This document shows positions 15,007 to 61,111 of a DNA stretch of 64,000 nucleotides, in pieces. Location of the stretch: assembly GCA_038042445.1 (NCBI GenBank), contig JBBTED010000059.1:1-64000 (forward strand). The letters run 5' to 3'. The notes under the pieces were generated by a model. That model was given only the letters and a program-made list of their open reading frames with translations, made no database searches and was not told the DNA's origin. The DNA comes from Candidatus Firestoneibacteriota bacterium (GTDB lineage Bacteria > Oederibacteriota > D2-FULL-39-29 > JBBTED01). Both the position numbers and the translations under genes were made by a program. The number at the start of each line of letters is the position of its first letter. Position 1 is the first letter of the stretch.

Positions 15007-16494
15007 ATGAAAATCAAAATAAATTTTAAAGATATTTTGTCTACAGGCAAAACTGTATTGAAATCAAAAACTGCAAAGTATGGAACAAATCTTACTGTTT
15101 TTGCATTAGTTGTTGTAGGTATAGTAATTTTTGTAAATGTTATACTGTCGCGTCATAGCTTTAGACATGATTTTACTGTGAACAAACAGTTTGATTTGTC
15201 CGGGCAGACCAAGAAAATATTGAAAGGTTTGGATAAAAAAATAAAAATCACAGCATTTTCCAAAAAGGGAACATATAATGACAGAATGATAAAAGATATG
15301 CTTGAAGAATATGCACAGATAAGTAAAAAAATTGAATTGGATTCTATTGATCCTGATTCAAATCCAGGAAAGGCACGTCAATATGGAATTACCACTTATA
15401 ATACAGTTGTATTTGAAACAGGGACTGGCAGAAAAGATGTTTTGGAGAAAGATTTATTCGTATATGATTATAGTAATTCTTATGGAGGGCAGCAGCCTCC
15501 GCAATTTCAGGGTGAACAGACTTTTACTGCGGCAATAATGAGTATTACACAGGAGGGACAAAAAGTAATTTATTTTCTTAAAGGGCATGGGGAAAGAGAT
15601 GTAAATGATTCCGGAAGAGAAGGATTTAGCGAGGCTAAAAAAACTTTAGAAAGAGAAAATTATGTAATAAAAGAATTAGATTTAGCAACTACTACTAAAA
15701 TCTCTGAAGATTGCCAGCTTTTAATTGTTCCTGGACCTAAAAAGGGGTTTGCAGAAAAGGAAATTGAAATTGTTGAAAAATATCTGGCAGGTGGAGGTAA
15801 AGGTTTGTTTATGTTTGACCCCGGAGTTAATACAGGTTTGGAGGGTATGCTAAAAACTTATAAGATTGATATTGGGAATGATTTAATTTTAGATCCTGCG
15901 AGTTGTTATTCCGGTGATGCAATGGCTCCAATTCCTGCATATAAATCGCATGATATAACAAATGAATTACAAAAACAGCGTATTGGTATTATTTTGGCGG
16001 CAGCACGTAGTGTGAGTGAACCTAATGGTAATTCAGATGGTGTAGTTGTTTTTCCACTTCTTGAAACTAGTGATAAGGGATGGGCAGAGAAAGATTTAAG
16101 AACACAAAAGGCAAAATATGATGAAGGTGTAGATAAAAAAGGTCCTGTTACTATTGCGGTAGCAGTTACTAAAACCGTGACCGAAGGGAATACTGGAAGT
16201 GTTACTCAAAAAGATAAGACAGAAGAAATGCGTATGGTTGTTATAGGAGATTCAGATTTTGTTACAAATAAAATAATGGGAATTCAGGGAAATGTGGATT
16301 TCTTTGGGAATTCTGTGAATTGGATATTGCAGGAAAAAGAAAAAATAGCAATTAGACCAAAGACACTTGAATTAAGAAAAATGGATTTATCCAGATTTAA
16401 AGGTAAATTTATATTCTGGGTGACAGTGGTGCTTACTCCTTTATCTGTATTAGTATGTGGTATTACAGTTTGGGTAAAACGACGTAAGAAATAA
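15007..16494 (+). CDS. GldG-family ABC auxiliary protein
   Basis: DFT..KQFDLS, YFLKGHGE, VVIGDSDF, N- and C-terminal TM helices. Confidence 0.85.
   Translation: MKIKINFKDILSTGKTVLKSKTAKYGTNLTVFALVVVGIVIFVNVILSRHSFRHDFTVNKQFDLSGQTKKILKGLDKKIKITAFSKKGTYNDRMIKDMLEEYAQISKKIELDSIDPDSNPGKARQYGITTYNTVVFETGTGRKDVLEKDLFVYDYSNSYGGQQPPQFQGEQTFTAAIMSITQEGQKVIYFLKGHGERDVNDSGREGFSEAKKTLERENYVIKELDLATTTKISEDCQLLIVPGPKKGFAEKEIEIVEKYLAGGGKGLFMFDPGVNTGLEGMLKTYKIDIGNDLILDPASCYSGDAMAPIPAYKSHDITNELQKQRIGIILAAARSVSEPNGNSDGVVVFPLLETSDKGWAEKDLRTQKAKYDEGVDKKGPVTIAVAVTKTVTEGNTGSVTQKDKTEEMRMVVIGDSDFVTNKIMGIQGNVDFFGNSVNWILQEKEKIAIRPKTLELRKMDLSRFKGKFIFWVTVVLTPLSVLVCGITVWVKRRKK
16179..16200 (+). repeat. Dispersed 22-bp motif GACCGAAGGGAATACTGGAAGT (other copies at 17517, 18171, 20761, 61085)
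   Basis: Exact match with 61085-61106; 21/22 at 20761, 20/22 at 18171, 17/22 at 17517. Confidence 0.85.
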
Positions 16495-16551
16495 AACGAT
16501 TATCTTTTGTAGTCGCAGGCTTTAGCCTGCGAAGTATTAAAAGGAGTTCTT

Positions 16552-17559
16552 ATGAAAAAATTTAAAGCTACATATATAGTAATTGGAATTTTTATACTGT
16601 TAGCAGTATATATTTATTTTTTTGAAAGAGGCGAAGTTCCAAGCAAAAAAATAAAAATTTTTAGTGATATTAAAAAAGAAGATATAAATAAAATAGAATT
16701 AAATAATGTAGAGAAAAACGAAACAATAATTTGTGAAAAAATCAGAGATAATGAATGGCAGATAATAAGTCCTAAAAGGTATGACATTGAGCAGGACGAA
16801 ATAGATTCTTTGGTCAATAACTTTGTTAATCTTGATATTGATAGAGAATTCAAGGATAAAGAACTACGAAATTTAAAGGATTATGGTTTGGATGCTCCCT
16901 CTTTTAAGGCAATAGCATATTTTAAAAATGGGAAATCAGCAACTTTGTTTTTTGGCCAGAAAACACCATCTAATAGTTATTATTTTGTTCAACCATCTGA
17001 TAAAAACGTAGTTTGCACAGCAGCTACTTATAGTGTTGAAAATGTTAAAAAAGATATTCCAAAATTACGCAAAAAATCAATATTTTTATTTGATACTGAA
17101 AAAGTAACCAAAATTTTACTGGCAGGAGATAAAGGTCCAATAGAGTGTGAGAAAGATGACAAAGGTGATTGGAGAGTTAAGTCTACTGTAAGTGTTCCGG
17201 GTGATAAAAATGCCATTGAATCAATTGTCAATACTGTTAAAAATTCAAGAATTCAAGAATTTATAGAAGATGAGCCAAAGGATTTGGGAAAATATGGACT
17301 TAAAAAATCAAAAATAAGTATAAAAATATGGGAAGGGAAGGATAAAGTTATTGCATCGCTTTTATTTGGTAAAAAAATGGAAGGCAAAGAACAAGTTTAT
17401 GTGAAGAATGAGTCAGCAAAACCTGTTTATGCTGTTTTTAGTTCTATTGCTACAGATGTCCACAAAGGTATAGATGACTTAAAAGATAAAAAGATAGAAG
17501 AAAAACCTAAGTCTACGACCAAAGGGAATGGTGGAACCATTGGTACTATAAAAAAGTAA
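16552..17559 (+). CDS. DUF4340-like periplasmic protein
   Basis: Two repeats with L.DYGL..P and L.FG motifs; usual partner of GldG operons. Confidence 0.75.
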   Translation: MKKFKATYIVIGIFILLAVYIYFFERGEVPSKKIKIFSDIKKEDINKIELNNVEKNETIICEKIRDNEWQIISPKRYDIEQDEIDSLVNNFVNLDIDREFKDKELRNLKDYGLDAPSFKAIAYFKNGKSATLFFGQKTPSNSYYFVQPSDKNVVCTAATYSVENVKKDIPKLRKKSIFLFDTEKVTKILLAGDKGPIECEKDDKGDWRVKSTVSVPGDKNAIESIVNTVKNSRIQEFIEDEPKDLGKYGLKKSKISIKIWEGKDKVIASLLFGKKMEGKEQVYVKNESAKPVYAVFSSIATDVHKGIDDLKDKKIEEKPKSTTKGNGGTIGTIKK

Positions 17560-17601
17560 TTGCAATCGTACTTGTTTTTTGTCACATTATTTTAAAATCC
17601 T

Positions 17602-19605
17602 ATGGAAGATAAATTAAAAACTCTTATTAGTTTTATGCGAACCCTTCGCATTGCAATGAGTAATATCCAGTTGTATTCTACTACGAGTGCTATAGTTCAG
17701 GATACAGTTAATATGTGTTATGGCACGCTTATACAAATATTAGAACAAGATAAAACTTTGATGTTGAGTGAATCTGAAAAATCTATTCTTGTAGATGGCA
17801 AAATGTTGGATTTCACTGGAGTTGAAAAGGGATTTATTAATAATTTTGCAGAAACTTTAATTTCCCAAAAAATAAGAAGTATTACTTTTAAATATGGTAT
17901 TTCTAAAGGTGAATTAACAGCTTTTCTCGAGGTATTAAGTAAAAGAAAAAGATTAGCTGGAATGGAAGGACATATTTCACAGCTGTTAATTAAAAAACAA
18001 ATTTCCAATATACAATTGGATGAAAAAATATATGTTGTTGCTGATGATAAAGATAAAGAGAAACAAGGAGATAATATTGTTACTCAAGAACAAGAAGTAG
18101 TTGCACAGGAATCTGCTCAGTTTGCCTCGCCGGATGAAACCACAGTTTCAGGACAAGATGCTGGAAGCGAGATCAAAGGGAATACTGGAAGTAGAAAATA
18201 TGCTTCTGCAGGAATAGGTGGTATAGGACAAGCAGGAAGTATGGGGCAGGGTGAAATTATTTATAGAACAAAGGAAGAAAAATTATATAGTGATGTAGAT
18301 AATGTACTTAAGAAAGACAGAAAATCACTCCTTGAAGAAACTCACAAAAAAGCGCTTCCACAGATGTTAAAGGATTTAGATGTTATTGAGAGAACGGATC
18401 TAGCAGGAAAAGTTGTAGATGGATTTGCAGAAAATCTGGATGATACGGTTCCTTCTGTCCGATTAGAGACAGTTCGTTCTTTTAAAGAATTTAGTTCTAC
18501 TATTGAAGGATTAAGCGATAAAAAAATAATAGGCAAATTAGAAGATAAATTTATAGATACTGAAGATAAGGAATCAGAAGAGCAAATATATCTTGAATTA
18601 GCAGATTTATTAGAAGAAGGTGTAAATAGGCTGCTTGTGCGAGGAGATTATGACAAGTCTGGTAGAATACTTACAATGTTTCAACGGCATCGTACAGCTA
18701 AATACGAAGTATTTGCAGAAAGATGGCAATGTGCTGAGAAAGTTTTGGAACGTATTGCAAATAGTCATTTTATTTCAATACTTGTAAGTGATTTGCGTTG
18801 TGATGATGTAAAAAAGCAAGAACAAGCATATTCAATAATACTTAAAATGGAAGAAATGTCTATAGAACCTCTTATTGAAGCATTAAAAGAAACAGAGGAT
18901 TTACATCTTAGAAAAGTTATAGCTTATGCATTAAAACGTATGGGAAAAGAAGCAATAGAGAAATTGTTAGATGTATTGTCAAATGAAACATCGCCTGTGG
19001 AAATCAAAAGGATTGTTGAAATAATTGATATATTAGATGTAAAAGATAAAATAATAGAAACTTTGAAAGGAGTATTTGGACATTATAGTTCTTTAGTCCG
19101 TAAGAATATTCTTTATGTTTACTTTAGAATAGGAAGTGAAGAAGCAAAACAATTGTTAGCTGAAGCAATTAATGATGTTGATGTTGAAGTTCAATTAGAA
19201 GCTATTAAGCTGGTTGGAAAATTAAAATGTGAAATTGCAGTAGATGTTTTGATTGCAAAAATTGTATCAGTCAAACTTTTCAGTAAAGAAATAGTTAGCG
19301 AAGCTGTTCAAGAAGAGATATGCGTTTCATTGGGTAAAATAGGGCACTCTTTGGCTATTACTGCCTTATTTAATACTGCATTATCACAATCATTTTTAAG
19401 TTTTAAGTCCACAAAACCGCTAAACGTTAGATTGTCTGCAGTTATGTCACTTTCAGGTTTTTCTAATAATGATGCAAAATTATCTCTTGAAAAATTGTCT
19501 TTAGATAAGAATTCTCAGGTTAAAAAAGCAGTTGCAGAAGCTTTAAATAGGCAAGCCAAATTAATATCTCAAAAGGGTGAAAATTTAGCACAAAAAGTAC
19601 TATAG
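17602..19605 (+). CDS. HEAT-repeat protein
   Basis: Repeated VRL.A...LG helical motifs in the C-terminal half; low-complexity linker. Confidence 0.65.
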   Translation: MEDKLKTLISFMRTLRIAMSNIQLYSTTSAIVQDTVNMCYGTLIQILEQDKTLMLSESEKSILVDGKMLDFTGVEKGFINNFAETLISQKIRSITFKYGISKGELTAFLEVLSKRKRLAGMEGHISQLLIKKQISNIQLDEKIYVVADDKDKEKQGDNIVTQEQEVVAQESAQFASPDETTVSGQDAGSEIKGNTGSRKYASAGIGGIGQAGSMGQGEIIYRTKEEKLYSDVDNVLKKDRKSLLEETHKKALPQMLKDLDVIERTDLAGKVVDGFAENLDDTVPSVRLETVRSFKEFSSTIEGLSDKKIIGKLEDKFIDTEDKESEEQIYLELADLLEEGVNRLLVRGDYDKSGRILTMFQRHRTAKYEVFAERWQCAEKVLERIANSHFISILVSDLRCDDVKKQEQAYSIILKMEEMSIEPLIEALKETEDLHLRKVIAYALKRMGKEAIEKLLDVLSNETSPVEIKRIVEIIDILDVKDKIIETLKGVFGHYSSLVRKNILYVYFRIGSEEAKQLLAEAINDVDVEVQLEAIKLVGKLKCEIAVDVLIAKIVSVKLFSKEIVSEAVQEEICVSLGKIGHSLAITALFNTALSQSFLSFKSTKPLNVRLSAVMSLSGFSNNDAKLSLEKLSLDKNSQVKKAVAEALNRQAKLISQKGENLAQKVL

Positions 19606-19616
19606 TATTTTAACTA

Positions 19617-19703
19617 TGGTGCGGAAGGGGGGAGTTGAACCCCCAAGGAGTTGCCTCCACTAGACCCTGAATCTAGCGTGTCTGCCAGTTCCACCACTTC
19701 CGC
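19617..19703 (-). tRNA. tRNA-Leu(CAG)
   Basis: Reverse complement GCGGAAGTGGTGGAACTGGCAGACACG-CTAGATTCAGGGTCTAG, long variable arm, ends CCA. Confidence 0.95.
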
Positions 19704-19870
19704 AAAGCTAAAACCATTATATTTAAATAAATACCAAAAGTCAAAAAAAAATGTAAATCATACAGAAATTTTTCAAAACGATATTTTTTGTAGTTACTCA
19801 ATTTATTGAGCTTAAAAAACGCTTGATTTTACAGTTGATAATTACTATAGTTATACAAGAGGTGGGATTT

Positions 19871-20287
19871 ATGTCAAGAAGATGTAATAGAGTGAATTCA
19901 GCAGAAGAGAAAGTAATGGCGGAAATAAATATTACTCCTTTAACAGATATTGCATTAGTGTTATTGGTAATATTTATGGTGACAACGCCTTTGATTTTGC
20001 AGGCAGGAATAAAAGTTAAACTACCGAAATCAACTACTGCAGAAATTGGAGCAGAAAAATCTATTAATGTTTCAATAACCGCGGAAGGAAAAGTATATAT
20101 TAATAACAGAGAAATTATTGGTGATGTCATTGCTCAATTAAAAAATGCTTTATCATATACATCAGAAAAAGTGATTGTATTAAATGCAGATAAAATAGTA
20201 CCGCATGGAAAAGTTGTAGAAATTTTGGATGCTGCTAAAAAGTCAGGTGCACTTAAATTAGTTATAGCTACAGAAAAAATCAAATAA
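19871..20287 (+). CDS. exbD: Biopolymer transport protein ExbD/TolR
   Basis: EINITPLTDIALVLLVIFMVTTP; NADKIVPHG; RBS before ATG 19871. Confidence 0.9.
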   Translation: MSRRCNRVNSAEEKVMAEINITPLTDIALVLLVIFMVTTPLILQAGIKVKLPKSTTAEIGAEKSINVSITAEGKVYINNREIIGDVIAQLKNALSYTSEKVIVLNADKIVPHGKVVEILDAAKKSGALKLVIATEKIK

Positions 20288-20292
20288 AGTGT

Positions 20293-20316
20293 GTCAGGCA
20301 AGATGCCTGACCTATT
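20293..20316. repeat. Solo RAYT-type REP between exbD and tonB
   Basis: GTCAGGCAAGATGCCTGACCTATT identical to the copy at 5177. Confidence 0.9.
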
Positions 20317-20326
20317 TACTAATAAA

Positions 20327-21145
20327 ATGAATTTAAAACTTCCCCACTATATTTTTATATCAACAATTGTGCATATTATTCTTGCGTTTGTATTTTCTGC
20401 AATAATTATTCAAGGTGGAATAAAGCAAATGACATTGTTTACAGAGGTTACTTTGTTAGGTGGAGGAATTCCTAAAGGTGTAGGTATGGGGCAACGTGGC
20501 GCTCTTGAAAGTAGAGTTATTCCTCGTGTTGCAAAGTTAGTTAAAAAATCTGCTTTAATTCCTAAAGAAGTTGAAAAATCTAAAGTTGCTATAAATATAC
20601 CAAAAATAGTTCAACCTGTTGAGGAAAAAATTGAAAAAATTAGTGCAGTTCAACCTGTTGTTAATAATGCATCTCAAGAGAATTTGTCTACTACACTTGG
20701 AGAAAAAGCTTCAGGTAAAGGTGATGAGAAAAGTTTAGGTTTTGCAGAGGGTAGTAGTATGACCGAAGGAAATACTGGAAGTATTGGTGGTGGAGTTGGT
20801 GAAGGCACTGGATTTGGTGATGACCCAGGACTTGTTGGTATTGCTGAAGGTAATCCAGATATACAAGGACCAATAGCTCAGCGTGGTATTCGGTATTCCT
20901 ACGTTCCTCCATATCCTGAATGGGCAAAAAAAACAGGTGCAGAAGGTGATGTTAAAATTCAAATTGTAGTTTCACCTGCTGGATTTGTGCGGTATAATGT
21001 TAAAATATTGCAAACATCAGGATATAGAGAATTTGATGAAATAGTAATTGAAAGTATAAAGAAATGGAAATTTGAACCTTTACCAGGTACTGTTACACAA
21101 TTAGATCAGCAAGGTGTGATTGCATTCAAGTTTAAAATCAAATAA
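20327..21145 (+). CDS. tonB: Energy transducer TonB family protein
   Basis: N-terminal TM with S...H, C-terminal PPYPEWA..EGDV..SG..FD...IKKWKFEP; start moved past the REP. Confidence 0.8.
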   Translation: MNLKLPHYIFISTIVHIILAFVFSAIIIQGGIKQMTLFTEVTLLGGGIPKGVGMGQRGALESRVIPRVAKLVKKSALIPKEVEKSKVAINIPKIVQPVEEKIEKISAVQPVVNNASQENLSTTLGEKASGKGDEKSLGFAEGSSMTEGNTGSIGGGVGEGTGFGDDPGLVGIAEGNPDIQGPIAQRGIRYSYVPPYPEWAKKTGAEGDVKIQIVVSPAGFVRYNVKILQTSGYREFDEIVIESIKKWKFEPLPGTVTQLDQQGVIAFKFKIK

Positions 21146-21189
21146 ATCAAACCATAATTCTAAAATTTTCCTTAGTTTTGCGTTTTTTT

Positions 21190-21266
21190 TGGTGCGCCTG
21201 AGTGGATTTGAACCACCAACGCGCGGCTTCGGAGGCCGCTGCTCTATCCAGCTGAGCTACAGGCGC
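21190..21266 (-). tRNA. tRNA-Arg(CCG)
   Basis: Reverse complement GCGCCTGTAGCTCAGCTGGATAGAGCA-GCGGCCTCCGAAGCCGC...CCA. Confidence 0.95.
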
Positions 21267-21270
21267 AAAA

Positions 21271-21354
21271 GTCAGACAATAGACTACAGACTAAAGACAT
21301 TAGACTCTGAAGTCTATTGTCTTTAGTCTGTTTTAAAGTCTATAGTCTGTAGTT
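21271..21354. repeat. Inverted array of 7-bp repeats (AGACTAN / NTAGTCT)
   Basis: CAGACAA TAGACTA CAGACTA AAGACAT TAGACT followed by AGTCTAT TGTCTTT AGTCTG...AGTCTA TAGTCTG. Confidence 0.75.
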
Positions 21355-21409
21355 GTAGTTTATCAAATCTTATTGACAATATAAAGTTATTTCTGCTAAT
21401 ATTTTCTTT

Positions 21410-22498
21410 ATGAGCGTTGTAGGTTTGGATATAGGGACTAATGTTGTTAAAATTGTACAAGTAAAAGAAGCAGGAGATAAATTCCAGCTTATAAACCTTG
21501 CTATTTCTGAAATTTCCTCTGAACCGGTTGAAGAATTAGAGCCACAAGCTCGTTTTAATCTAACAGTAGAAGCCATTAAAAAAGTAGTTAAGGAAAGTGG
21601 AATAAAAAGTAAAAATGTAGCTTTATCTTTAAGTGGAGATGGAGTTATTGTTCGCTACGTACGTCTTCCATTTATGAGTAGAGATGAATTAAAAGCTATT
21701 GTAAAACATGAAGCAGAGCAGTATATCCCGATTGGTATTGATCAGGTAATGCTGGATTTCCAAATTCTTGGCGAGGTAAGTGAGGATAATCAGAAAAAAA
21801 TGGATGTTTTGCTTGTTGCAGCAAAAAATGAATTGGTTGACCAATATATAAATATTGTGCAATCCGCTGGATTAATTCCACTATTAATAGATGTAGATGT
21901 ATTTGCACTCGGTAATTCTTATGAGGCGAATTTCGGCAAAAAAGAAGGAGAAACTGTCGCTTTAGTGAATATAGGTGCAAAAATAATTTCAATCAATATA
22001 TTGGAAGATGGTGTAACGAAGTTTGGCAGAGATGTTGCTGCTGGAAGTAATATTATAACCAAAGATATACAACGGGAATTTAAATTAAATTATATTGATG
22101 CTGAGAAATTTAAAAAAGAAGAAGCAACTGTTATTATTGAATCAGATGACGAGTTACTTCTAACACGTATACCAGACAAAGAAGATAAATCAATGAAAAC
22201 CCATGAAGCAATAATAGGTAATTTAAATAAAATGGTTGCTGAAATAAGACGTGCACTTGATTTTTATGAGTCCCAGGCTAAAAAACGTGTGGTTAATAAA
22301 GTTTTACTAAGTGGTGGTGGCTCTTTGCTTAAAAATATGGATAAATTTTTAAATGATAAATTGCGTATACCTGTGGAATTTAATAATCCATTAGCTAATT
22401 TTGAAGTTAAACTGGACAATTTTCCAGCAGATAAAATTTCCGGGTTGGCATCACAACTTGCTGTTGTTATTGGTTTATCAACCAGAAAAGCAAAATGA
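21410..22498 (+). CDS. pilM: Type IV pilus assembly protein PilM
   Basis: VGLDIG, EAEQYIP, VLLVAAK, VNIGA, LSGGGS actin-like motifs. Confidence 0.9.
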   Translation: MSVVGLDIGTNVVKIVQVKEAGDKFQLINLAISEISSEPVEELEPQARFNLTVEAIKKVVKESGIKSKNVALSLSGDGVIVRYVRLPFMSRDELKAIVKHEAEQYIPIGIDQVMLDFQILGEVSEDNQKKMDVLLVAAKNELVDQYINIVQSAGLIPLLIDVDVFALGNSYEANFGKKEGETVALVNIGAKIISINILEDGVTKFGRDVAAGSNIITKDIQREFKLNYIDAEKFKKEEATVIIESDDELLLTRIPDKEDKSMKTHEAIIGNLNKMVAEIRRALDFYESQAKKRVVNKVLLSGGGSLLKNMDKFLNDKLRIPVEFNNPLANFEVKLDNFPADKISGLASQLAVVIGLSTRKAK

Positions 22499-23043
22499 TC
22501 ACTATAAATTTATTACCAGAAAAATATTATAAAGCACGCAAACTTAAGCAATTGCTGGCTATTTTAATTGTAGGTGGTTCTGTAATAGTAGCAGTTTTAA
22601 TTTTTTTATATTTTATACAAGTTAAAAATGTGGCTAAACTAAACAAACAAATTAAAGAAGTTGAGGTTGAACAGGAAAAATATAGGCCTATTCTTGAAAA
22701 GATGGAAATGATAAAAAACAAAGAAGCCTTTCTTCAATCAAGAATGAAAGTTTTGAAAGAGTTAACAACTAAGCATTCTGTGTGGCCACGACTTCTTGAT
22801 GATTTAAATAGAGTAGTTCCATTTAATATCTGGCTTACCAAAGTGGATAGTAAAGCACAGGCAAAAGGCAGGATTTTTACAATAGATGGTATTAGTCTTT
22901 CAAAAGAGGGAGTTGCAGATTTTATGACTAATCTTCAAAAATCCACTTATTTTGAAAATGTTGTTTTGCTTTCTCTTGCAGAAAGTTTTGTTAGTGGAAT
23001 GTCTCAAGTTTCATTTAGAATTACTTGTTCAAGTAAAATATGA
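22495..23043 (+). CDS. pilN: Type IV pilus assembly protein PilN
   Basis: INLLP motif, TM helix, coiled coil, VADFMTNLQKS. Confidence 0.85.
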   Translation: MITINLLPEKYYKARKLKQLLAILIVGGSVIVAVLIFLYFIQVKNVAKLNKQIKEVEVEQEKYRPILEKMEMIKNKEAFLQSRMKVLKELTTKHSVWPRLLDDLNRVVPFNIWLTKVDSKAQAKGRIFTIDGISLSKEGVADFMTNLQKSTYFENVVLLSLAESFVSGMSQVSFRITCSSKI

Positions 23044-23600
23044 TTTCAACTAATGACTTTCGAAAAGGGGTAATTATAGAAGTGGATAATATTTCTTGTG
23101 AAGTGATTGATTTTCAGCATGTAAAACCTGGTAAAGGTGGTGCTTTTGTAAGGACAAAGTTAAAAAATGTTAAAACAGGAGCAGTGCTTGATAAAACTTT
23201 TAATGCCGGGATAAAAGTAAAATTGGCAGATTTGGAAGAAAAATCTGTGCAATATTTATATAAATCCGAAAAAGAATACCATTTTATGGATGATAGAACT
23301 TATGAGCAGATATATCTTACCCAAGAGCAGATTGGAGACAACATAAAGTTTTTAAAAGAAAATATGACTTTGGATTTAGTATGTAAAGACGGGGTAGCGC
23401 TTACCATTAAATTCCCAACTTTTGTTGAATTAAAAATAACTGATACTCCTCCAGGTGTAAAAGGAGATACTGCAGCTACAAATTCAAAACCTGCAACTGT
23501 AGAAACAGGAGCATTAATTCAAGTGCCATTTTTTATCAATATTGGTGACGTTATAAAGATTGATACCAGAACAAATGATTATGTAGAGCGGGTAAAATAA
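23040..23600 (+). CDS. efp: Elongation factor P
   Basis: HVKPGKGGAFVR, PPGVKGDT, KIDTR. Confidence 0.97.
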   Translation: MISTNDFRKGVIIEVDNISCEVIDFQHVKPGKGGAFVRTKLKNVKTGAVLDKTFNAGIKVKLADLEEKSVQYLYKSEKEYHFMDDRTYEQIYLTQEQIGDNIKFLKENMTLDLVCKDGVALTIKFPTFVELKITDTPPGVKGDTAATNSKPATVETGALIQVPFFINIGDVIKIDTRTNDYVERVK

Positions 23601-23641
23601 TTATGGTCTGGTGAAAGAAGACAGACCATAAACAGAAAATT

Positions 23642-24100: not shown

Positions 24101-24102
24101 CA

Positions 24103-25449: not shown

Positions 25450-25793
25450 AACAGGATATTACAAGAAATCCATTGGGAGTTTTAAATATTTCTATAGAAG
25501 CAATTGCTTCTATATCTGCTATTGCTGCATCTAAAGTGCCGGGAGTTATTGGAATGAGTGGGGGAGTTATAGATACAATTGCACAGTTTTTAGGTAAGAA
25601 AGGTGTTGATAAAGGTATCAGAGTTACAGTAGATGAAAAGGAAGTTGGTTTGGATTTATTTATAATTGTAAATTTTGGTTCAGATATTTCAGAAATTGGC
25701 GCACAGGTTCAGGAAAAAGTAAGAGATGCAGTTGAAAATATGACAGGTCTTTCAGTTCGTGAAGTTAATGTTACAGTTCAGGAAGTAAAATAA
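25446..25793 (+). CDS. Asp23/Gls24 family protein
   Basis: [29 protein letters not shown]; typical position after accC. Confidence 0.85.
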
Positions 25794-53515: not shown

Positions 53516-53516
53516 A

Positions 53517-54512
53517 ATGAAAAAACCAATTGTGCTAATTACTATGGGTGATGCCGCTGGTATTGGCCCTGAAGTAATAATTAAGGCATTATCTAATAAA
53601 AAAATACATAAAATATGTTTTCCTGTAGTAATTGGTGACTTGAGTGTAATGCAATTTGCAATTTTAAAATTCAAATCAGATTTTAAAATAAATATTGTAA
53701 CTGATATAAAAGCAGAGAAATTCATACCAAAATGCATAAATCTATTTGATATGTCAAATTTAAATGCAAGTGAAATTAAAATGGGACAGATAAATAAATT
53801 AGCTGGAAAATCTTCAATAGAATACATAGAAAAAGCAGTTGAATTAATAAATAAAAATATGGCAAATGCTGTTGTAACAGCACCTATTAATAAAGAAGCT
53901 ATTGCAAGAGCTGGGTTTTGGTATCAAGGTCATACTGAGTTTTTGGCAAAACTTACAAATACAAAACATTTTGAAATGATGTTAGTTGGTGGTTCGCTTA
54001 AAGTTGTTCTTGTTACAAGGCATATTCCTCTAAAAGAAGTAAGCAAGTTTTTGAGCAAAGAAAAGATTGTTCAAACTATTAAGATTACCAACAAATATTT
54101 AAAGGAATATTTTAATATTAAATCTCCTAAAATAGGGGTTTTAGGTTTAAATCCACATTCTGGAGAAGGTGGGTTATTTGGTTTAGAAGAAAAAGAGATA
54201 ATAATTCCCGCAATTAAATATGCAAATAAAATCAATATAAATGCAATAGGGCCACTTGTTCCAGATGCTTGTTTTTATAAAGCTCTTAAAGGTGAGTTTG
54301 ATGCATTGGTATGTATGTATCATGATCAGGGATTAATACCACTTAAAATGTTGTTTTTTGACAAAGGAGTTAATATAACACTTGGGCTTCCATTTATTCG
54401 CACATCTGCCGACCATGGGACAGCTTATGATATAGCTGGTAAAGGGATAGCTAATTGTGGAAGTATGATTTTTGCCATAGAATTGGCTGCTAGGTTTTCC
54501 CAAAGATGCTAA
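53517..54512 (+). CDS. pdxA: 4-hydroxythreonine-4-phosphate dehydrogenase
   Basis: MGDAAGIGPE, GHTE, LNPHSGE, MYHDQG, RTSADHGTA. Confidence 0.95.
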   Translation: MKKPIVLITMGDAAGIGPEVIIKALSNKKIHKICFPVVIGDLSVMQFAILKFKSDFKINIVTDIKAEKFIPKCINLFDMSNLNASEIKMGQINKLAGKSSIEYIEKAVELINKNMANAVVTAPINKEAIARAGFWYQGHTEFLAKLTNTKHFEMMLVGGSLKVVLVTRHIPLKEVSKFLSKEKIVQTIKITNKYLKEYFNIKSPKIGVLGLNPHSGEGGLFGLEEKEIIIPAIKYANKININAIGPLVPDACFYKALKGEFDALVCMYHDQGLIPLKMLFFDKGVNITLGLPFIRTSADHGTAYDIAGKGIANCGSMIFAIELAARFSQRC

Positions 54513-55369
54513 TTCTTAAAAAATCATTAGGCCAGAATTTGCTTTTCGATGAAAACATTTTAAATGAGATAGTAACTGCAGGCGAAATAACAAAAGATGA
54601 TATTGTCCTTGAAATAGGTTGTGGCACAGGTAATTTGACAAAAATTTTAGCCCAGCATTCGAAATTTGTTTTAGGTGTAGAAATAGACCATAATTTGTGT
54701 GATATTTTAAAAGAAAATATGCTACCGTACGATAATGTTAATATTGTTAAAGAAGATATATTAAAAATAGACTTGAAAGATTTAATCACAAATTTTTTTA
54801 AAAAAAATAACTTGTCGCAAATTAACACTAATGTGAAGGTTGTTGGAAATCTGCCATATTATATTACAACTCCTATTTTGATTAAATTATTAAAAGAAAG
54901 AGAAAATTTTAATACAATCGTAATTATGGTGCAAAAAGAAGTTGCAGAAAGAATTGTTGCCAAATCGGGTAGCAAAATTTATGGTAAACTTTCATTGTTA
55001 GTTCAGTATTATGCATTGCCTGAAATTATTACAAAAATTTCAGCAGAGGCTTTTAGTCCTAAGCCAAAAGTAGATTCTGCACTTATCAAGCTAAAAATTT
55101 TACCTAAGCCAAGTGTATATGTTAAAGATGAAGAAATGTTTTTCTCAATAATAAAAGCTGGTTTTGGAGGAAGACGAAAAATGTTTAAAAATACAATTAA
55201 AAATGCTTTGCATTTACAGGAAGACATTATTTTGAAGGCATTTAATATAGCGAAAATAGATGCCAAATCACGTGCAGAAGATTTAGATATGGATAAATTT
55301 GCAGTGCTTTCTGAAGAATTCACGAAAGTAAAGATGCATTGCAATGAGTCTCTACAAAAAGCAAAATGA
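54506..55369 (+). CDS. rsmA: 16S rRNA dimethyladenosine transferase
   Basis: KSLGQN, EIGCG, GNLPYYITTP, PKVDSA. Confidence 0.95.
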   Translation: MLILKKSLGQNLLFDENILNEIVTAGEITKDDIVLEIGCGTGNLTKILAQHSKFVLGVEIDHNLCDILKENMLPYDNVNIVKEDILKIDLKDLITNFFKKNNLSQINTNVKVVGNLPYYITTPILIKLLKERENFNTIVIMVQKEVAERIVAKSGSKIYGKLSLLVQYYALPEIITKISAEAFSPKPKVDSALIKLKILPKPSVYVKDEEMFFSIIKAGFGGRRKMFKNTIKNALHLQEDIILKAFNIAKIDAKSRAEDLDMDKFAVLSEEFTKVKMHCNESLQKAK

Positions 55370-56259
55370 GAAATATTAAATTTATAGTTAATCCTATTTC
55401 AGGTGATGGCAAAGGCAAAAATGCTGCTTTGCAGATTGAAAATTATTTTAAGAACAAAAAAACTAATTATTCTATAGATTTAATTCCACATCCTGGAAAA
55501 ATTTCTTTTTTAGTAAAAAATGCTGTGAATGAAGGTTATGATATAATAGTAGCAGTTGGTGGAGATGGAACTATAAACGGGGTTGTAAATGAAGTTTTTG
55601 GAGAAAATGTATTGTTTGGCATTATTCCTGTTGGTTTTGGCAATGACTTTGCAAGACATCTAAGAATCCCAAAAAATATTTCAAAAGCTTGTAAAATTAT
55701 AGAAAATGCCAATACTATTCCAATTGATGTTGGGAAAATAAAATCCCGTGGTGCAAATGATAAATATTTTATAAATAGTGTAGGTTTTGGTTTTGATGGT
55801 TTAGTGTTGCATGATGCAGAAAAATCACGTGGTAAAGCACATAGTTTAGTTCGTTATATAGTAAGTATATTAAAAACAATACGACTTTTTAAATCTATAA
55901 AATTGAAAATTATGTTAGATAAAACATACGAAATAGACACAGATACTTTAATGATAGTTATCGGTAATTCTGCGTATGAAGCAGGTGGTTTCAAAGTTAC
56001 TCCGAATGCAAAACTTGATGACGGACTTTTAGATATTTGTATATTAAAAAAAATGAGTAAATTTCAGTTTCTTATACATATGCCTAAAGCTTTTTATGGC
56101 AACCATATGGATAGTTCTTTAGTTATGACATATCAAGCTAAAACCATAGATATATTTTCCGATTCTGTCTTGTATGGTCACATAGACGGTGAAAAAATAC
56201 AATCCACACACTATAACATAAAAGTAATACCCAAAATCCTGCAACTTATAGTTCCATAA
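55366..56259 (+). CDS. Diacylglycerol/lipid kinase family protein
   Basis: NPISG, GGDGT, GNDFAR, DGE. Confidence 0.9.
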   Translation: MRNIKFIVNPISGDGKGKNAALQIENYFKNKKTNYSIDLIPHPGKISFLVKNAVNEGYDIIVAVGGDGTINGVVNEVFGENVLFGIIPVGFGNDFARHLRIPKNISKACKIIENANTIPIDVGKIKSRGANDKYFINSVGFGFDGLVLHDAEKSRGKAHSLVRYIVSILKTIRLFKSIKLKIMLDKTYEIDTDTLMIVIGNSAYEAGGFKVTPNAKLDDGLLDICILKKMSKFQFLIHMPKAFYGNHMDSSLVMTYQAKTIDIFSDSVLYGHIDGEKIQSTHYNIKVIPKILQLIVP

Positions 56260-56413
56260 ATCTTAGAAATAAACACTTGGAAATAAAAATTAGTTGCTTA
56301 TCGCAAATATTTTGTGCTAATATAATTTTAATATGGTCTGGTGGAAAAAATATCAACCATAAGGGAAAAAATTATACTGTCTCCTTAAAACACACAGTAT
56401 CAGGGAAAAAATT

Positions 56414-58912
56414 ATGAAAGCTGTTATAATGGCAGGGGGATTTGGTACACGACTTAGACCTATTACTTGTAATATTCCTAAACCGGTTGTTCCTTTAGCA
56501 AACAGACCTATAATGGAACATATTATCGAACTTCTAAAACGTTATGGGTTTGTGGATTTAGCTGCAATACTTTATCATCAACCTGAAATAATTACAGAAT
56601 ATTTTCGCGATGGTGTGGAATTTGGTGTGAAGATGAGTTATGTCAGAGCTGAGTCTGACCTTGGGACTGCGGGTAGTGTAAAAAAGGCTGTTAAATTATT
56701 AAATGAGAGATTTTTAATTATAAGTGGAGATTTGCTTACTAATTTTAATTTATCTGAAATTATAGATTATCATATCAAAAAGAAAGCACTTGCAACTATG
56801 GTTTTAACTCGTGTTGAAAATCCACTTCAGTATGGAGTTGTTATCACAGAAAAAAATGGTAAAATATCCAGATTTTTAGAAAAACCTTCATGGGGAGAAG
56901 TTTTTAGTGATACGATAAATACAGGAATTTATGTATTAGAGCCACAAGCACTTAACTATATTCCGGACGATCAGGAATTTGATTTTAGCAAAAATCTTTT
57001 TCCTCTTTTTCTTGAAAAAGGTTTGCCTCTTTATGGATATGTAGCATCAGGTTACTGGAAAGATATTGGGAATTTATCTGAATACAGGTTAGCGCATAGT
57101 GATGTTTTAAATGGCAAGATAACTCTTAATATACATGGCCGTAAAATTGAAGATAAAAATAAGAATCTTTGGATAGGAGAGGAAACAAATATTGATCCAC
57201 AGGCTATTTTGGAGGGTTCGATAATAATTGGAAAAAACTGTACTATCAAAAAGAATGTCCGAATTTCAGGTTCTGTGATTGGTGATAATTGTGTTCTTGA
57301 TGAAGATGCTGATATAAAAGATTGTGTATTATGGGATAACATATATGTGGGTCCTAGTGCAAAAATATTAGATAGCGTTATTTGCAAAGGTGTAGATGTA
57401 GGTGCAGATGCGCAAGTAGAAAAAAATGTTGTAGTTAGTGAAGAGTGTGTTCTTGGCAGGGGAAGTTTAATTAAGCAGGATGTAAAAATATGGCCTTATA
57501 AAACTATAGAAGACGGAGCTACATTGTGCACAAGTTTAATATGGGGCGATAAATGGTCAAGAGCGTTATTTGGTGAATATGGAATAGTAGGGCTTGCAAA
57601 TATAGAAATAACACCTGAATTTGCAGCAAAATTGGGAGCGGCTTATGGAGCTACTTTAGATAAAGGCGCAACAATTTTAAGCTCTCGGGATATACATAAA
57701 ACAAGCAGGATAATACATAGAGCGATAATGTGTGGTTTGCTTTCTTCAGGTGTGAATATAGTTGATTTTGGAATTACACCAATACCTGTAGCTCATTATG
57801 TGTCTAGGCCACTTGGAACTTGTGGTGGAATACATATTAGAAGGTCTCCTTATAATTCACAGGTTATAGACATTAAGTTTTTTGATGAAAATGGAATGGA
57901 TTTAAGTTCTTCAAGAGAACGGAGTATAGAAAGTTTGTTTTTTAGGGAAGATTTTAGACGTGCCCAGATTGAAGAAACAGGTGAAATATCTTTTCCATCC
58001 AGAGCTATGGAATTATATAGAGACGGGTTTTTAAATTTTGCAAATGTTAAAGAAATACAAAATGCAAAATTTAAAATTGTTGTGGATTACGCTTATGGTC
58101 CGGCTGCCACAATATTTCCTTCGCTTCTTGGAAAATTTTCCTGTGAAGTGGTTGCTTTGAATTCACATATGGATGCTTCAAAACTTACTAAAACTGCGGA
58201 GGAATTTGATCATAGCTTGAAACAGCTTTCTAATATTGTTGGAACATTAAAAGCAGATGCCGGATTTTTGATGGATGCAGGTGGAGAGAAAATTTTTATG
58301 GTTGATGAACTTGGAAAGGTTGTTTCCGGAGATGATGCATTGGGATTGATTGTGTCACTTGTATTGTCGAGCAATCCATTTTCTACAATTGCTGTTCCAG
58401 TTACTGCTTCTAGAAATATTGAAGAAATAGCAAAAAAAAATGGGTCTATTGTTTTGCGGACACGAACTACATATCGTTCTATGATGGATACAGCACAAAA
58501 AAAAGATGTGATTTTTGTAGGTGAAAATAAGGGTGGATATATATTTTCAAAATTCAATACTACTTTTGATGCAATGATGTCTATAGCAAAGCTTCTGGAA
58601 TTTCTGGCAAAACATAAAGTAAAAATATCAACAGTTTTGAAAAAATTACCTAAGTCAGTAATTATTCGCGAGCATATTTCTTGTCCATGGGAACTTAAAG
58701 GAACAATTATGCGTAATTTAATAGAAGCAACCAAGTCGCATAAAGTGGATTTAATAGATGGTGTTAAAGTGTATCATAACAGGGATTGGGTTATAATAGT
58801 TCCAGATCAGGAAATGCCATTATTACATATTAATGCTGAAGCATCTGATGAGCAAAAAGCAAGGACATTAGTAAATAAATATATAGAACAAATCAAAAAA
58901 TGGCAAAAATAA
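56414..58912 (+). CDS. Sugar-1-phosphate nucleotidyltransferase (mannose-1-P guanylyltransferase-like) with hexapeptide repeats and a phosphomutase-like domain
   Basis: MAGGFGTRLRP, EKP, left-handed beta-helix, PGM/PMM-like C-terminal half. Confidence 0.88.
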   Translation: MKAVIMAGGFGTRLRPITCNIPKPVVPLANRPIMEHIIELLKRYGFVDLAAILYHQPEIITEYFRDGVEFGVKMSYVRAESDLGTAGSVKKAVKLLNERFLIISGDLLTNFNLSEIIDYHIKKKALATMVLTRVENPLQYGVVITEKNGKISRFLEKPSWGEVFSDTINTGIYVLEPQALNYIPDDQEFDFSKNLFPLFLEKGLPLYGYVASGYWKDIGNLSEYRLAHSDVLNGKITLNIHGRKIEDKNKNLWIGEETNIDPQAILEGSIIIGKNCTIKKNVRISGSVIGDNCVLDEDADIKDCVLWDNIYVGPSAKILDSVICKGVDVGADAQVEKNVVVSEECVLGRGSLIKQDVKIWPYKTIEDGATLCTSLIWGDKWSRALFGEYGIVGLANIEITPEFAAKLGAAYGATLDKGATILSSRDIHKTSRIIHRAIMCGLLSSGVNIVDFGITPIPVAHYVSRPLGTCGGIHIRRSPYNSQVIDIKFFDENGMDLSSSRERSIESLFFREDFRRAQIEETGEISFPSRAMELYRDGFLNFANVKEIQNAKFKIVVDYAYGPAATIFPSLLGKFSCEVVALNSHMDASKLTKTAEEFDHSLKQLSNIVGTLKADAGFLMDAGGEKIFMVDELGKVVSGDDALGLIVSLVLSSNPFSTIAVPVTASRNIEEIAKKNGSIVLRTRTTYRSMMDTAQKKDVIFVGENKGGYIFSKFNTTFDAMMSIAKLLEFLAKHKVKISTVLKKLPKSVIIREHISCPWELKGTIMRNLIEATKSHKVDLIDGVKVYHNRDWVIIVPDQEMPLLHINAEASDEQKARTLVNKYIEQIKKWQK

Positions 58913-60324
58913 CTTTTGGTACATCAGGGTGGAGAGCTATAATAGCTGAGGATTTTACTTTTGAAAATGTTTCTATTGTAGCTCAGGCGATTGCAAATTA
59001 TCTTGCTGAAAGCAAAAGTAAAAGCATTGTTATAGGTTATGATACACGTTTTTTGTCTGAAAAATTTGCTCATAGTGTTGCTGAAGTAACTTCTGCAAAT
59101 AAACTACACACATTTTTAGCGCATAGAGATGTTCCTACTCCAGTAATTGCTTTTGAAATCTTAAGACGCAAATCCGGAGGTGGAATAAACATTACTGCAA
59201 GTCATAATCCTCCGGAATATAACGGGATAAAATTTTCTTCCAATTGGGGAGGTCCTGCTACTACAGATGTAACAAAACAGATAGAAAAAAATATTCAAGA
59301 AATTCTGAAGGGCAAAAAAAGCGTAAAAAAGATTTCAATTGAAGAAGGAGTTAAAAAAGGCAATATTGAATTCATACAGCCATATTTTGCATATTTTAAG
59401 AGAATAAAAGATATTGTTGACTTTAAAATTTTAAAAAAATTAAAGAAAAAAATAGTTGTGGATTGTTTTTATGGAACAGGCAGAGGATATTTAGATGAAC
59501 TTTTATCACAAGCAGGTTGTAGTACAGTAATATTACATTCAAAAAGAGATGTTTTGTTTGGTGGAAAAACTCCAGAACCATCTGGCGAAAACTTGCAGGA
59601 ATTAATTGCTACAGTTAAATCGCAAAATGCTGTATTAGGTCTTGCAATGGATGGAGATGCAGATAGATTTGGCATAGTAGATAGAGATGGAACATATTTA
59701 ACTTCAAATGAAGTGTTGGTATTACTTTTTAAATATTTGGTTGAATCCAGAAACTGGAAAGGTTGTGTTGTCCGAACTATTGCAACGACTCATCTTATAG
59801 ATGCAATGGCGTCAAAATATAATGTTCCTGTAAGGGAAACACCTGTTGGATTTAAATATATTGGTGAAATAATGACAAAAGAAGACATAATAATAGGTGG
59901 AGAAGAGAGCGGTGGGCTTTCTGTTTACAGGCATATTCCTGAAAAAGACGGTATACTTGCTTGTTTGCTTATTGCTGAACTTGTTGCTGCTTATGGTGGT
60001 AAAACTTTAAAGTCTATTTTGAAAGAAATACATAAAGAATTTGGTACATATTATAACTCAAGGATGAGTTTAAAATTAGGGGAAGACAAAAAAGTAAAAC
60101 TACTGCATTTATTTAAAAATAATCCTCCTGAAAAATTGGGGTATTTAAAAGTTACACATTTAGATACCAGAGATGGATTTAAATTTATTTTAGAAGATGG
60201 AAATTGGATGCTTATGAGGTTTTCCGGAACAGAGCCACTTGTACGTTTATATTTTGAAGCTACTAATTTGAAATCGCTACAGGCTCTAAAAAAATCCACA
60301 CGAGAAATAATATCAAAACTTTGA
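58900..60324 (+). CDS. Phosphoglucomutase/phosphomannomutase
   Basis: FGTSGWR, ITASHNP, DGDADR, GGEESGG, RFSGTEP. Confidence 0.93.
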   Translation: MAKITFGTSGWRAIIAEDFTFENVSIVAQAIANYLAESKSKSIVIGYDTRFLSEKFAHSVAEVTSANKLHTFLAHRDVPTPVIAFEILRRKSGGGINITASHNPPEYNGIKFSSNWGGPATTDVTKQIEKNIQEILKGKKSVKKISIEEGVKKGNIEFIQPYFAYFKRIKDIVDFKILKKLKKKIVVDCFYGTGRGYLDELLSQAGCSTVILHSKRDVLFGGKTPEPSGENLQELIATVKSQNAVLGLAMDGDADRFGIVDRDGTYLTSNEVLVLLFKYLVESRNWKGCVVRTIATTHLIDAMASKYNVPVRETPVGFKYIGEIMTKEDIIIGGEESGGLSVYRHIPEKDGILACLLIAELVAAYGGKTLKSILKEIHKEFGTYYNSRMSLKLGEDKKVKLLHLFKNNPPEKLGYLKVTHLDTRDGFKFILEDGNWMLMRFSGTEPLVRLYFEATNLKSLQALKKSTREIISKL

Positions 60325-60333
60325 AGGAAGAGT

Positions 60334-61086
60334 GTGTTTAAGAAAATATTGCTTAGATTCTTTTGGAAAGCTTATGATAATATAGGCAAGGTGTTTTATG
60401 TAAGTATTCTTTGGTTTGTCACCACAACCCCATTTTTTTTATTTACCACTTATGCACCATTTGTGCAATTACTCAATATGATAATAAGTCTCATTTTTGC
60501 ATTGCTTATTTTTGTTTCTGCTATTTCAAGTTTTAATGTGATGAGCATTGTGACGAGAGAAGGCAGTATTGAAGAAAAAAAAATATATCAGATGTTTTAT
60601 AGCGGAATCCTGAGTTTCTTTAAAAAAGGCACAATTCTTTTTTTTATAAATATATTAATTCTTTTTTTTGCATTTATAAATCTAAAATTTTATCTTTATT
60701 TGCCAGGCGCCTTAAAATATCTTGGTGCTATATTGTCCGGTATTATTTTTTGGATTTTGATTTTTTGGGCTACGGTACATATATATATATTTCCACTACT
60801 TGTTAAAAAGGATTTAAGTTTATGGAGAACTATAAGAACAGCATTGTTGCTTACTTTGGATAATGTTTTTGCAAGTCTTGGAATTTTTGCAATTTGTGTT
60901 TTGTTTTTTGCTGTTCTTACTGTTTCAATTGCAGGTTTTGCATTGTTATTAGTTGGAGTCCTTGCAGTGTTTTTAGATGTGGCATTTGCTGAAATATGGA
61001 AAAAATATGATAAATTGGTAGATACTGAAAGCGATGAAGAAGAAAACAGAACATTTAAAGAACTAATAAAACCCTGGGAAGCATGA
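60334..61086 (+). CDS. Integral membrane protein (DUF624-like)
   Basis: Multiple TM helices; FWKAYDN and KELIKPWE ends. Confidence 0.5.
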   Translation: MFKKILLRFFWKAYDNIGKVFYVSILWFVTTTPFFLFTTYAPFVQLLNMIISLIFALLIFVSAISSFNVMSIVTREGSIEEKKIYQMFYSGILSFFKKGTILFFINILILFFAFINLKFYLYLPGALKYLGAILSGIIFWILIFWATVHIYIFPLLVKKDLSLWRTIRTALLLTLDNVFASLGIFAICVLFFAVLTVSIAGFALLLVGVLAVFLDVAFAEIWKKYDKLVDTESDEEENRTFKELIKPWEA

Positions 61087-61111
61087 CCGAAGGGAATACT
61101 GGAAGTGAAAA

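Follow-up and report, generated by a model that had tools for sequence, protein, structure and literature searches.

A 24-nucleotide unit inserted into unrelated genes and palindromic repeats of a Firestoneibacteriota genome

The stretch analysed here, called the window below, comprises 64,000 nucleotides (nt) of contig JBBTED010000059.1 (C59) of a Candidatus Firestoneibacteriota bacterium, whose 2.81-Mb draft genome (G000) consists of 181 contigs with 31.9% G+C. Our subject is a 24-nt unit that is found five times in the window and that, from the comparisons given below, is well supported as a discrete insertion. Four of the window copies lie inside open reading frames (ORFs) and the fifth lies between two ORFs, as listed here.

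16177..16200, + strand: type-1 unit GTG ACC GAA GGG AAT ACT GGA AGT, in the GldG-like ORF 15007-16494, read VTEGNTGS
17515..17540, + strand: type-2 unit ACC AAA GGG AAT GGT GGA ACC AT, in the tail of the DUF4340 ORF 16552-17559, read TKGNGGT
18169..18192, + strand: type-1 unit (2 mismatches), within the HEAT-repeat ORF 17602-19605, read EIKGNTGS
20759..20782, + strand: type-1 unit (1 mismatch), within the TonB ORF 20291-21145, in its linker, read MTEGNTGS
61083..61106, + strand: exact type-1 unit, between two co-directional ORFs (60334-61086, and the next one, which starts at 61112)

Copies in the window and the genome-wide family

The first-pass annotation of this DNA had described a 22-nt motif with five copies on the + strand, the four intragenic ones being read in one frame, and both the motif search and the ORF translations confirm all of them. 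The 22-mer, GACCGAAGGGAATACTGGAAGT, is exact at 16179 and 61085, with 1 mismatch at 20761 and 2 mismatches at 18171. The copy at 17517 matches it at 17 of 22 positions, yet its core, as defined below, is exact and all five hairpin pairs are present, and it is a diverged relative of the others. No copy of the 22-mer was found on the minus strand of the window, and 100 dinucleotide shuffles of the window gave 0 matches. The Pfam matches of the host ORFs (ABC_transp_aux/GldG-like, DUF4340, HEAT and TonB_C) agree with the earlier naming. In the DUF4340 ORF, TKGNGGT lies seven codons ahead of the stop. The copy at 61085 was said to supply a TGA stop and to be intergenic otherwise, which agrees with the ORF borders: the stop of ORF 60334-61086 (61084-61086) comes from the ATGA of the unit, and the unit ends 5 nt ahead of the ATG at 61112. 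Among 19 homologues of the GldG-like protein, of which the nearest is 45% identical, the linker with the copy is hypervariable in length, and the indel alignment gave no clear gap call there.

When both strands of all contigs of G000 were searched, 5 exact copies of the 22-mer were found, 10 with at most one mismatch, 22 with at most two and 25 with at most three. The strand bias described earlier stands for the window, where the minus strand has none, but it does not extend to one contig strand overall (7 copies on the + strand versus 15 on the - strand at up to two mismatches); the orientation follows gene direction instead. From the alignment of the copies, the length of the unit is 24 nt (R-W-G ACY RAA RGG AAT ACT GGA AGT), and the consensus of the whole family is RWG ACY RAA RGG AAT nnn gna nnn. 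It contains a nearly invariant 13-nt core, GACYRAARGRAAT, with 49 copies in G000 compared with 1 in the reversed-sequence control. Our catalogue of 68 copies consists of these 49 exact cores together with 19 copies whose core has a single mismatch and which form 4 or 5 of the hairpin pairs.

The hairpin is formed by the nine variable bases 3' of the core together with the preceding AAT and the following AT, and has 5 base pairs and a 3-nt loop. At least 4 of the 5 pairs are present in 27 of the 49 exact cores and in 0 of 86 control matches. There are two main versions: AAT-ACT-GGA-AGT-AT with an ACT/AGT stem, which is the motif of the first-pass annotation (22 copies), and AAT-GGT-GKA-ACC-AT with a GGT/ACC stem, which is the kind found at 17517 (20 copies). 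A rarer version is AATTCGCC-TA-GGCGAAT, with the stem TCGCC/GGCGA. In 42 of the 68 copies all three inner pairs are Watson-Crick, and the mean number of inner pairs is 2.35 compared with 1.55 +/- 0.10 in 2000 shuffles, the maximum of which is 1.94. Core positions 3 and 7 also covary (C-G in 45 copies, T-A in 16, T-G in 5 and C-A in 2). The pairing and covariation are evidence of moderate strength for a recognised structure, and only of moderate strength because the hairpins are weak and the stem types are few. The motif had been called not palindromic; there is indeed no full palindrome, but its 3' half is a 5-bp mini-hairpin with covarying arms.

The short terminal repeats proposed for the 24-bp unit did not prove general. 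They were based on a GGAAGC lying 24 nt 5' of the terminal GGAAGT, which is present at 18163 and 61077, but over the whole genome an upstream GGAAG is no regular part of the copies, its observed identity being reached by 139 of 2000 shuffles. Nor do the ends, GTGACC and GGAAGT, form terminal inverted repeats. A larger parent element was considered and rejected, as the flanks of the copies have nothing in common. Junction microhomology was rejected as well, since 63 of 2000 shuffles reach the observed value, which is not significant. The sole trends at the target are T, R and W at positions -3 to -1 and a weak R-T before the unit.

Empty and filled sites in two genomes

G000 contains a 27-nt palindrome, ATGGTCTGTCTTTTTCCACCAGACCAT, which we call REP27 after the repetitive extragenic palindromes (REPs). 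A loose pattern gave 35 sites, 23 of which are plain, 9 contain exactly 24 additional nt, 1 contains a different insert and 2 are tandem. In the filled sites the insert is GACCAAAGGGAATGGTGTAACCAT and its variants, placed 3' of ATGGTCTGT and always at the same loop position. At least 4 more filled copies were missed by the loose pattern, and all 13 nested copies are antisense to the downstream gene. The window itself has two empty sites.

12829..12855, no strand assigned: empty REP27 palindrome (27 nt), the loop of which is filled with the 24-nt unit at other sites of the genome
23603..23629, no strand assigned: empty REP27 palindrome, 15 nt 5' of the ATG of a 152-aa ORF

On its own, REP27 (sense form ATGGTCTGGTGGAAAAAGACAGACCAT) is found in one orientation, mostly 13-17 nt 5' of an ATG and with a conserved A-rich spacer AGTTAAAAAATT. 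The genes after it are many and unrelated, and largely translation-related (YchF, LepA, L6, L27 and RimP, by their N-terminal sequences). In the copy 5' of lepA (C95, about 54503 as reverse-strand coordinate), the loop position of the 24-mer is occupied by another insert, CTTTCCCGCTTAAAGATTGCGAGGACAAG..., which is about 27 nt long. REP27 may act as a leader or operator, or it may be one more mobile palindrome; its loop is a hot spot for inserts. Rfam gave no match in the REP27 region, nor at the copies of the unit in the 15 copy-bearing loci scanned.

The same indel is visible in proteins. When NadC is aligned with 1x1o_A, there is an 8-residue gap opposite (M)TKGNTGS, while 5hup_A has a 6-residue gap at the copy. 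FabG has a 7-residue gap at ETEGNSVA when compared to 4dml_A. In a CusA/ZneA-like pump, where two units are adjacent, the gap is 16 residues with 4k0e_A and 14 with CusA. For Rpe, the residues MTKGNSPRR are an element-encoded extension just before the true start, because the homologues align only from query residue 11-12, right after the unit. In the amidase and LCP-family hosts, the copies lie outside the parts aligned with PDB structures.

A species scan with the degenerate 22-mer, using one genome per species (185,579 species), matched only one other assembly. This is G031, a metagenome-assembled genome (MAG) labelled uncultured Anaerolineaceae with about 60% G+C, in which the scan gave 7 loci whose flanks have no similarity to G000. 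There are 11 core copies in G031, all within GTAG-headed REP hairpins of at least 3 stem types. The empty hairpins are also present: GGGCGCAGC-GT-GCTGCGCCC at 69 sites, and GGGGCGAC-N(5-14)-GTCGCCCC at 17 sites, including GGGGCGACCCGCCGGGTCGCCCC five times. A filled hairpin equals the empty one plus exactly 24 nt, GTGACCGAAGGGAATACTGGAAGT, just 5' of the 3' arm, with a junction ambiguity of 2 nt. This 24-nt difference is non-coding, and therefore it is the element itself, and no reading-frame filter, that sets the length at 24. A 2-nt target duplication was considered but is inconsistent among the near-exact copies, and it is excluded by the GCAGC-GT-GCTGC sites of G031.

Empty and filled REP27 sites, empty and filled hairpins in G031 and the gaps in proteins are three independent lines which agree, and it is for this reason that we regard the unit as a discrete 24-nt insertion. 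The earlier suggestion of a tiny coding-tolerant mobile insert, similar to the Rickettsia palindromic elements (RPEs), is supported by sites in two genomes and by gaps of 8, 7 and 16 residues. Three core variants (GACCGAAGGG, GACTGAAAGG and GACCAAAGGG) are common to G000 and G031, which points to a recent transfer rather than convergence. The comparison also hints at an origin of the element in FCPU426-type genomes, because the REP-like type 2 and the related REP described below occur only there.

The distribution is otherwise very narrow. In the host phylum, the 22-mer at up to two mismatches has its 22 matches in G000 and 0 in 30 other genomes. When core counts were compared with the control in 99 genomes of the phylum, strong enrichment was found only in G000 (49 versus 1), with mild enrichment in two genomes of another family, G039 (12 versus 4) and G044 (8 versus 3); the 24-mer as such was not found in the 98 other genomes. 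The 17-nt 5' part of the 22-mer is absent from 300 sampled genomes of the class of G031, and the type-2 pattern is in no other species representative. Viral contigs gave 0 matches to the 22-mer pattern and metagenome contigs gave 3, which is about the chance level according to our own estimate from the information content of the pattern. Two metagenome contigs (L017 and L018) contain a 22-mer variant, GACTGAAGGGAATACTGGAAGT, in a longer repeated unit on a contig with 53% G+C; this is probably a chance match.

The presence of the same 22-mer in two unrelated MAGs could also suggest that it is an artefact of the assembly or of the library, for example an adapter or a linker. Yet the variants form subfamilies, the copies are in frame or nested at precise positions, and those at 16179, 18171 and 20761 are found unchanged in contigs of independent runs (Logan, 4 runs from 3 studies); viral contigs gave 0 matches and metagenome contigs 3 near-chance ones. 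The copies are no assembly artefact, because contigs of independent studies carry them, and we leave next to no probability for this explanation.

Placement in genes, ancestry and mobilisation

The 68 copies were placed against our own ORF calls (at least 100 codons; 2370 ORFs covering 90% of the genome), with the following result.

Sense, in the phase reading T-E/K-G/R-N: 38 copies
Sense, in other phases: 5 copies
Inside ORFs, on the opposite strand: 8 copies
Intergenic: 17 copies

Thus 38 of the 51 genic copies are sense and in one phase. Among the opposite-strand copies, 5 of the 8 are nested in REP27 and overlapped by over-extended ORF starts. As for the copies in other phases, 4 of the 5 are positioned close to an end of their ORF (two lie 2 nt and 122 nt 5' of the stop, one lies 4 nt past the called start, and a doubtful one-mismatch match is 120 nt into the ORF), while the fifth, in the DnaX ORF of contig C27, is in the middle. 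Read forward, the unit contains a TGA in one of the alternative frames; read as the reverse complement, it is free of stops in all frames. Stop avoidance alone therefore permits 5 of the 6 configurations, and the observed 38:5:3 needs strong peptide selection, an orientation bias of insertion, or both. The intergenic share is 25-32% among the copies compared with 10% for the genome as a whole, and at least 7 copies adjoin a start codon as (...AGT or ACC) AT|G.

The host genes are unrelated; they include DnaX, RpoN, NadC, FabG, Rpe, trigger factor, ArgRS, ATP synthase b, two secretins, an RND pump, TonB and others. Copies cluster in linker-rich proteins, with at least 5 in the DnaX ORF (C27), at least 4 in a secretin (C158) and 2 in a pump (C48). 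All genic copies are in loops, linkers or tails. This placement, together with the tandem or clustered copies, could be explained if TEGNTGS or TKGNGGT were a useful flexible linker, that is, a peptide-level module spread by slippage and gene conversion. We consider this quite improbable, as the same 24 nt are present in non-coding hairpin loops of both G000 and G031, where no peptide is made, as copies in other phases and antisense copies exist, and as gene conversion needs flanking homology, which unrelated genes lack.

A polar chromosomal signal had also been proposed, similar to uptake sequences, Ter sites or FtsK-orienting polar sequences (KOPS); it would accumulate on one replichore strand. 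The locally G-rich strand carries 45 copies versus 9 on the C-rich strand, as such a signal would have it, but 5 of those 9 are nested in REP27 and the skew is confounded with gene direction, 89% of ORFs being on the G-rich strand. Moreover, there are only about 68 copies in 2.8 Mb; they are insertions and not substitutions, mostly in one codon phase, 13 of them nested antisense, and they are also found in the palindromes of another phylum. The proposal is not supported, and the probability that we give it is very small.

Another explanation is a functional nucleic-acid motif, either a protein site or a small structure in mRNA or single-stranded DNA, which would be selected in place and spread by recombination without being selfish. 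The nearly invariant core, the covarying stems, the identical sequence in two phyla, the almost uniform sense orientation in genes and the set of copies directly 5' of start codons are all what such a motif would give. On the other hand, Rfam has no match for it at the scanned loci and its hosts are unrelated; the 13 REP27-nested copies lie antisense to the gene downstream, and in G031 every copy is buried in a REP hairpin. The absence from 98 other genomes of the phylum and from 300 of the class of G031 is also unlike a housekeeping signal, and we hold this explanation to be unlikely.

As for ancestry, the type-2 unit was compared to the GTAG REP that flanks a gene for a REP-associated tyrosine transposase (RAYT)-like protein on contig C74, GTAGGGAATGGTCGCGACCATTCCCTAC. 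They agree at 16 of 19 positions over AGGGAATGGT-G..ACCAT, and the alignment score is 24 compared with 9.8 +/- 2.2 in shuffles, 0 of 2000 reaching it. In G039 and G044, an imperfect palindrome lies inside the loop of the C74 REP type, GTAGGGAACGGTC-GC-[...]-GACCGTTCCCTAC, and its 5' arm is the core; the genes next to these core-rich stretches are housekeeping only. From this, the unit looks like a cut-down REP in which RAAG replaces GTAG, the REP stem is begun but runs into a new short loop, and the 3' arm is truncated. An intramolecular triplex of the core purine run, suggested by its mirror symmetry with the REP arm, was rejected as a misfit with the copies outside REPs. A classical GTAG REP doublet, GTAGGGGCGAGTTTACTCGCCC-AATAAATG-GGCAGGTAAACCTGCCCCTAC, is also dispersed in G000 (28 matches of GTAGGGGCGA), and its head resembles the REPs of G031.

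There are five RAYT-like Y1 genes (PF01797) in G000, located on contigs C74, C59, C63 (two) and C11. The one on C59 is in the window.

5293..5785 (about), + strand: ORF of a RAYT-like Y1 (HUH) transposase, one of five in the genome, not linked to the 24-mer

Both sides of this ORF (5173-5319 and 5781-5949) are doublets of a perfect 28-nt palindrome, ATTTGTCAGGCAAGATGCCTGACCTATT, which makes this an arrangement of a REP doublet forming a hairpin (REPIN) with its RAYT, with a non-GTAG head. Two other RAYT-like genes contain a copy of their own flanking REP within the reading frame (C11, about 20047-20388; C74, about 19487-19771). Further upstream in the window, 4834-5164 contains tRNA-Gly(CCC) followed by three repeats of its 3' end, AAGTCCCATCGCCCGCTTTT..., spaced by 125 nt, and the ORF before them (about 3948-4800) appears by eye, from its C-terminal residues, to encode a tyrosine recombinase or phage integrase. 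The repeats look like the scars of repeated integration or att sites.

Among the enzyme families tested, Y1_Tnp is the only candidate with matches in both genomes (5 in G000 and 2 in G031). No reverse transcriptase was above the Pfam cut-off in G000 or G031 and no IS110 was found in either, so both were rejected as mobilisers. This matters for another explanation, in which the unit is a templated patch: a polymerase or reverse transcriptase would act as telomerase does, copying a short and always identical template of RNA or DNA into nicks or breaks without a transposition intermediate. The fixed 24 nt, the sharp junctions with an ambiguity of 1-2 nt, the lack of a target duplication and of a linked transposase, and at least 6 copies which adjoin start codons with AT or ATG microhomology would suit it. 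But the reverse transcriptase is missing from searches of a G000 assembly that is 90% complete as well as of G031, no template locus stands out among the 68 copies, the subfamilies with covarying stems suggest that copies beget copies, and the microhomology is weak, as seen from the shuffles above. We rate a templated patch as having only a slight chance, no better than that of the functional motif.

The reading we favour, and to which we give about an even chance, is a REP-derived, trans-mobilised and non-autonomous mini-element whose surviving copies were filtered by purifying selection. The unit would be non-coding DNA derived from a GTAG-type REP hairpin repeat, and would be copied in trans by an enzyme acting on single-stranded or hairpin DNA, the likeliest candidate being one of the RAYT-like HUH/Y1 transposases of G000. 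We name this candidate because it alone is present in both genomes, because reverse transcriptase and IS110 were not found, and because the anatomy and ancestry of the unit are REP-like; the assignment is nevertheless weak. New copies would land in hairpin loops, beside start codons and inside genes, and with 24 nt the frame would never be shifted. Purifying selection would then leave mainly sense copies in the phase T-E/K-G/R-N-T/G-G-S/T, giving a small polar peptide in linkers, loops and tails, and copies in other phases would survive only at protein ends. One side effect is that at gene borders the unit can provide a start codon (ATG or GTG) or a stop codon (TGA). That an unrelated high-GC MAG has the identical sequence would reflect recent horizontal spread along with the mobiliser.

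Several points weigh against this reading. The mini-hairpin is weak (mean DNA minimum free energy -1.5 kcal/mol, mean z -1.0), and the stem covariation consists of essentially two or three stem types only. No consistent target-site duplication was found, the flanking dinucleotides agreeing in about half of the near-exact copies, and there is no fixed target sequence, the five upstream bases being different among the 10 best copies. The filled REP copies may have spread by gene conversion or as a subfamily, in which case the independent events are fewer than the copies. In place of the GTAG or CGTC tag of known REPs, the unit has GAAG, AAAG or GAAA. No mobilising gene is linked to the unit: the five RAYT-like genes each have flanking palindromes of their own, and none is flanked by the 24-mer. 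Of the two Y1 matches in G031, one is an IS200/IS605 TnpA accompanied by TnpB and the other a doubtful C-terminal domain; neither is a clear RAYT. No polymorphism of the 24-nt indel was seen at the copies covered by the Logan contigs, but as these are short and from near-identical strains, this counts neither for nor against mobility. A preference for hairpin loops is seen in non-coding DNA but not in genes, where targeting of loops was rejected (2.97 spanning stems versus 3.10 at random genic sites). Finally, selection alone may not account for the ratio of 38:5:3; a replication-linked orientation bias of insertion is possible, but with most ORFs on the G-rich strand and the contigs unordered, such a bias is inseparable from gene direction.

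A bolder form of the REP-derived reading is more doubtful than the reading itself and is put forward tentatively. The unit could be a 24-nt "nano-REP", perhaps the smallest mobile DNA unit described, consisting of a recognition core and a 5-bp hairpin, and moved by HUH/RAYT-type cut-and-paste. Its length and sequence would apparently be tuned so that each insertion writes a start codon, a stop codon or an innocuous linker of eight residues, and it would have recently crossed between two phyla, from the FCPU426/Firestone-type lineage to one of the Anaerolineaceae.

If the REP-derived reading is true, the known size limit for mobile DNA would be lowered to 24 nt, and intragenic "selfish" peptide inserts of the RPE kind would be tied directly to the world of REPs and RAYTs, about which it is debated what they do and what they are for. 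Since empty and filled sites are known from two genomes, the substrate is cleanly defined. The unit would also represent a route by which protein linkers and new gene starts and stops arise without a frameshift, as well as a marker of horizontal exchange between uncultured groundwater lineages.

Comparison with known systems

In-frame palindromic inserts (RPEs) and intragenic or nested REPs are already in print, as passages of PMC3733652 describe. For a 24-nt unit of this kind, full-text searches of the literature, supplements excluded, gave no description among the matches listed.

KOPS, Chi and uptake motifs are many short copies made by substitution, with a change of strand at ori and ter, whereas the present unit is a 24-nt indel with about 68 copies. 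When compared to a miniature inverted-repeat transposable element, it differs in having neither terminal inverted repeats nor a target-site duplication. These two features are likewise lacking in IS200/IS605 insertion sequences (ISs), which have small hairpins and miniature derivatives known as palindrome-associated transposable elements (PATEs), and the strand bias of the unit, though confounded with gene direction, is compatible with the insertion into the lagging-strand template of this family. However, the known IS200/IS605-type elements need two subterminal hairpins and a fixed target of 4-5 nt, and are several times longer; no such fixed target is seen in the variable upstream bases of our best copies.

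Insertion at the border of the loop and arm of a REP hairpin is also known from IS1397/ISKpn1 and the IS1111-type ISs, but these are full ISs with a transposase gene and target duplications, and no IS110-family gene was found in G000 or G031. The role of REPs as IS targets is part of the background given in passages of PMC3733652.

The RPEs also share features with the unit. Both are small non-coding repeats that lie in frame in unrelated functional genes, where the extra surface peptide is tolerated, and both are also intergenic; the indel that goes with an RPE is seen here in NadC (8 aa), FabG (7 aa) and the CusA-like pump (16 or 14 aa). On the other hand, RPE-1 is reportedly longer than 100 bp and clearly palindromic, and RPEs are said to be confined to Rickettsia. 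The present unit has 24 nt and a 5-bp mini-hairpin, is nested in other palindromes and is found letter for letter in two phyla; the distinction is drawn from descriptions of the RPEs.

REPs and REPINs are the repeats from which the favoured reading would derive the unit. Those described in Di Nocera et al. 2013 (PMC3733652) are GTAG- or CGTC-tagged and 20-40 nt long, with dimers in addition, and have a stem-loop of 5-13 bp with complementary changes. The unit differs from them by its truncated 3' arm, which leaves the GGG of the stem unpaired, by its length of 24 nt compared with 20-40 nt plus dimers, and by the intragenic position of most copies. It also differs from the GTAG REP families in that no RAYT gene is flanked by it, the only link found being its sequence similarity to the C74 REP. 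Its stem of 5 bp (AT plus 3) with a 3-nt loop is within the range described for REPs. Like them, it has an unpaired conserved 5' part followed by a covarying stem-loop, it is present in tens of copies, some intragenic and in frame and others nested in palindromes, and it is found in a genome with RAYT-like genes.

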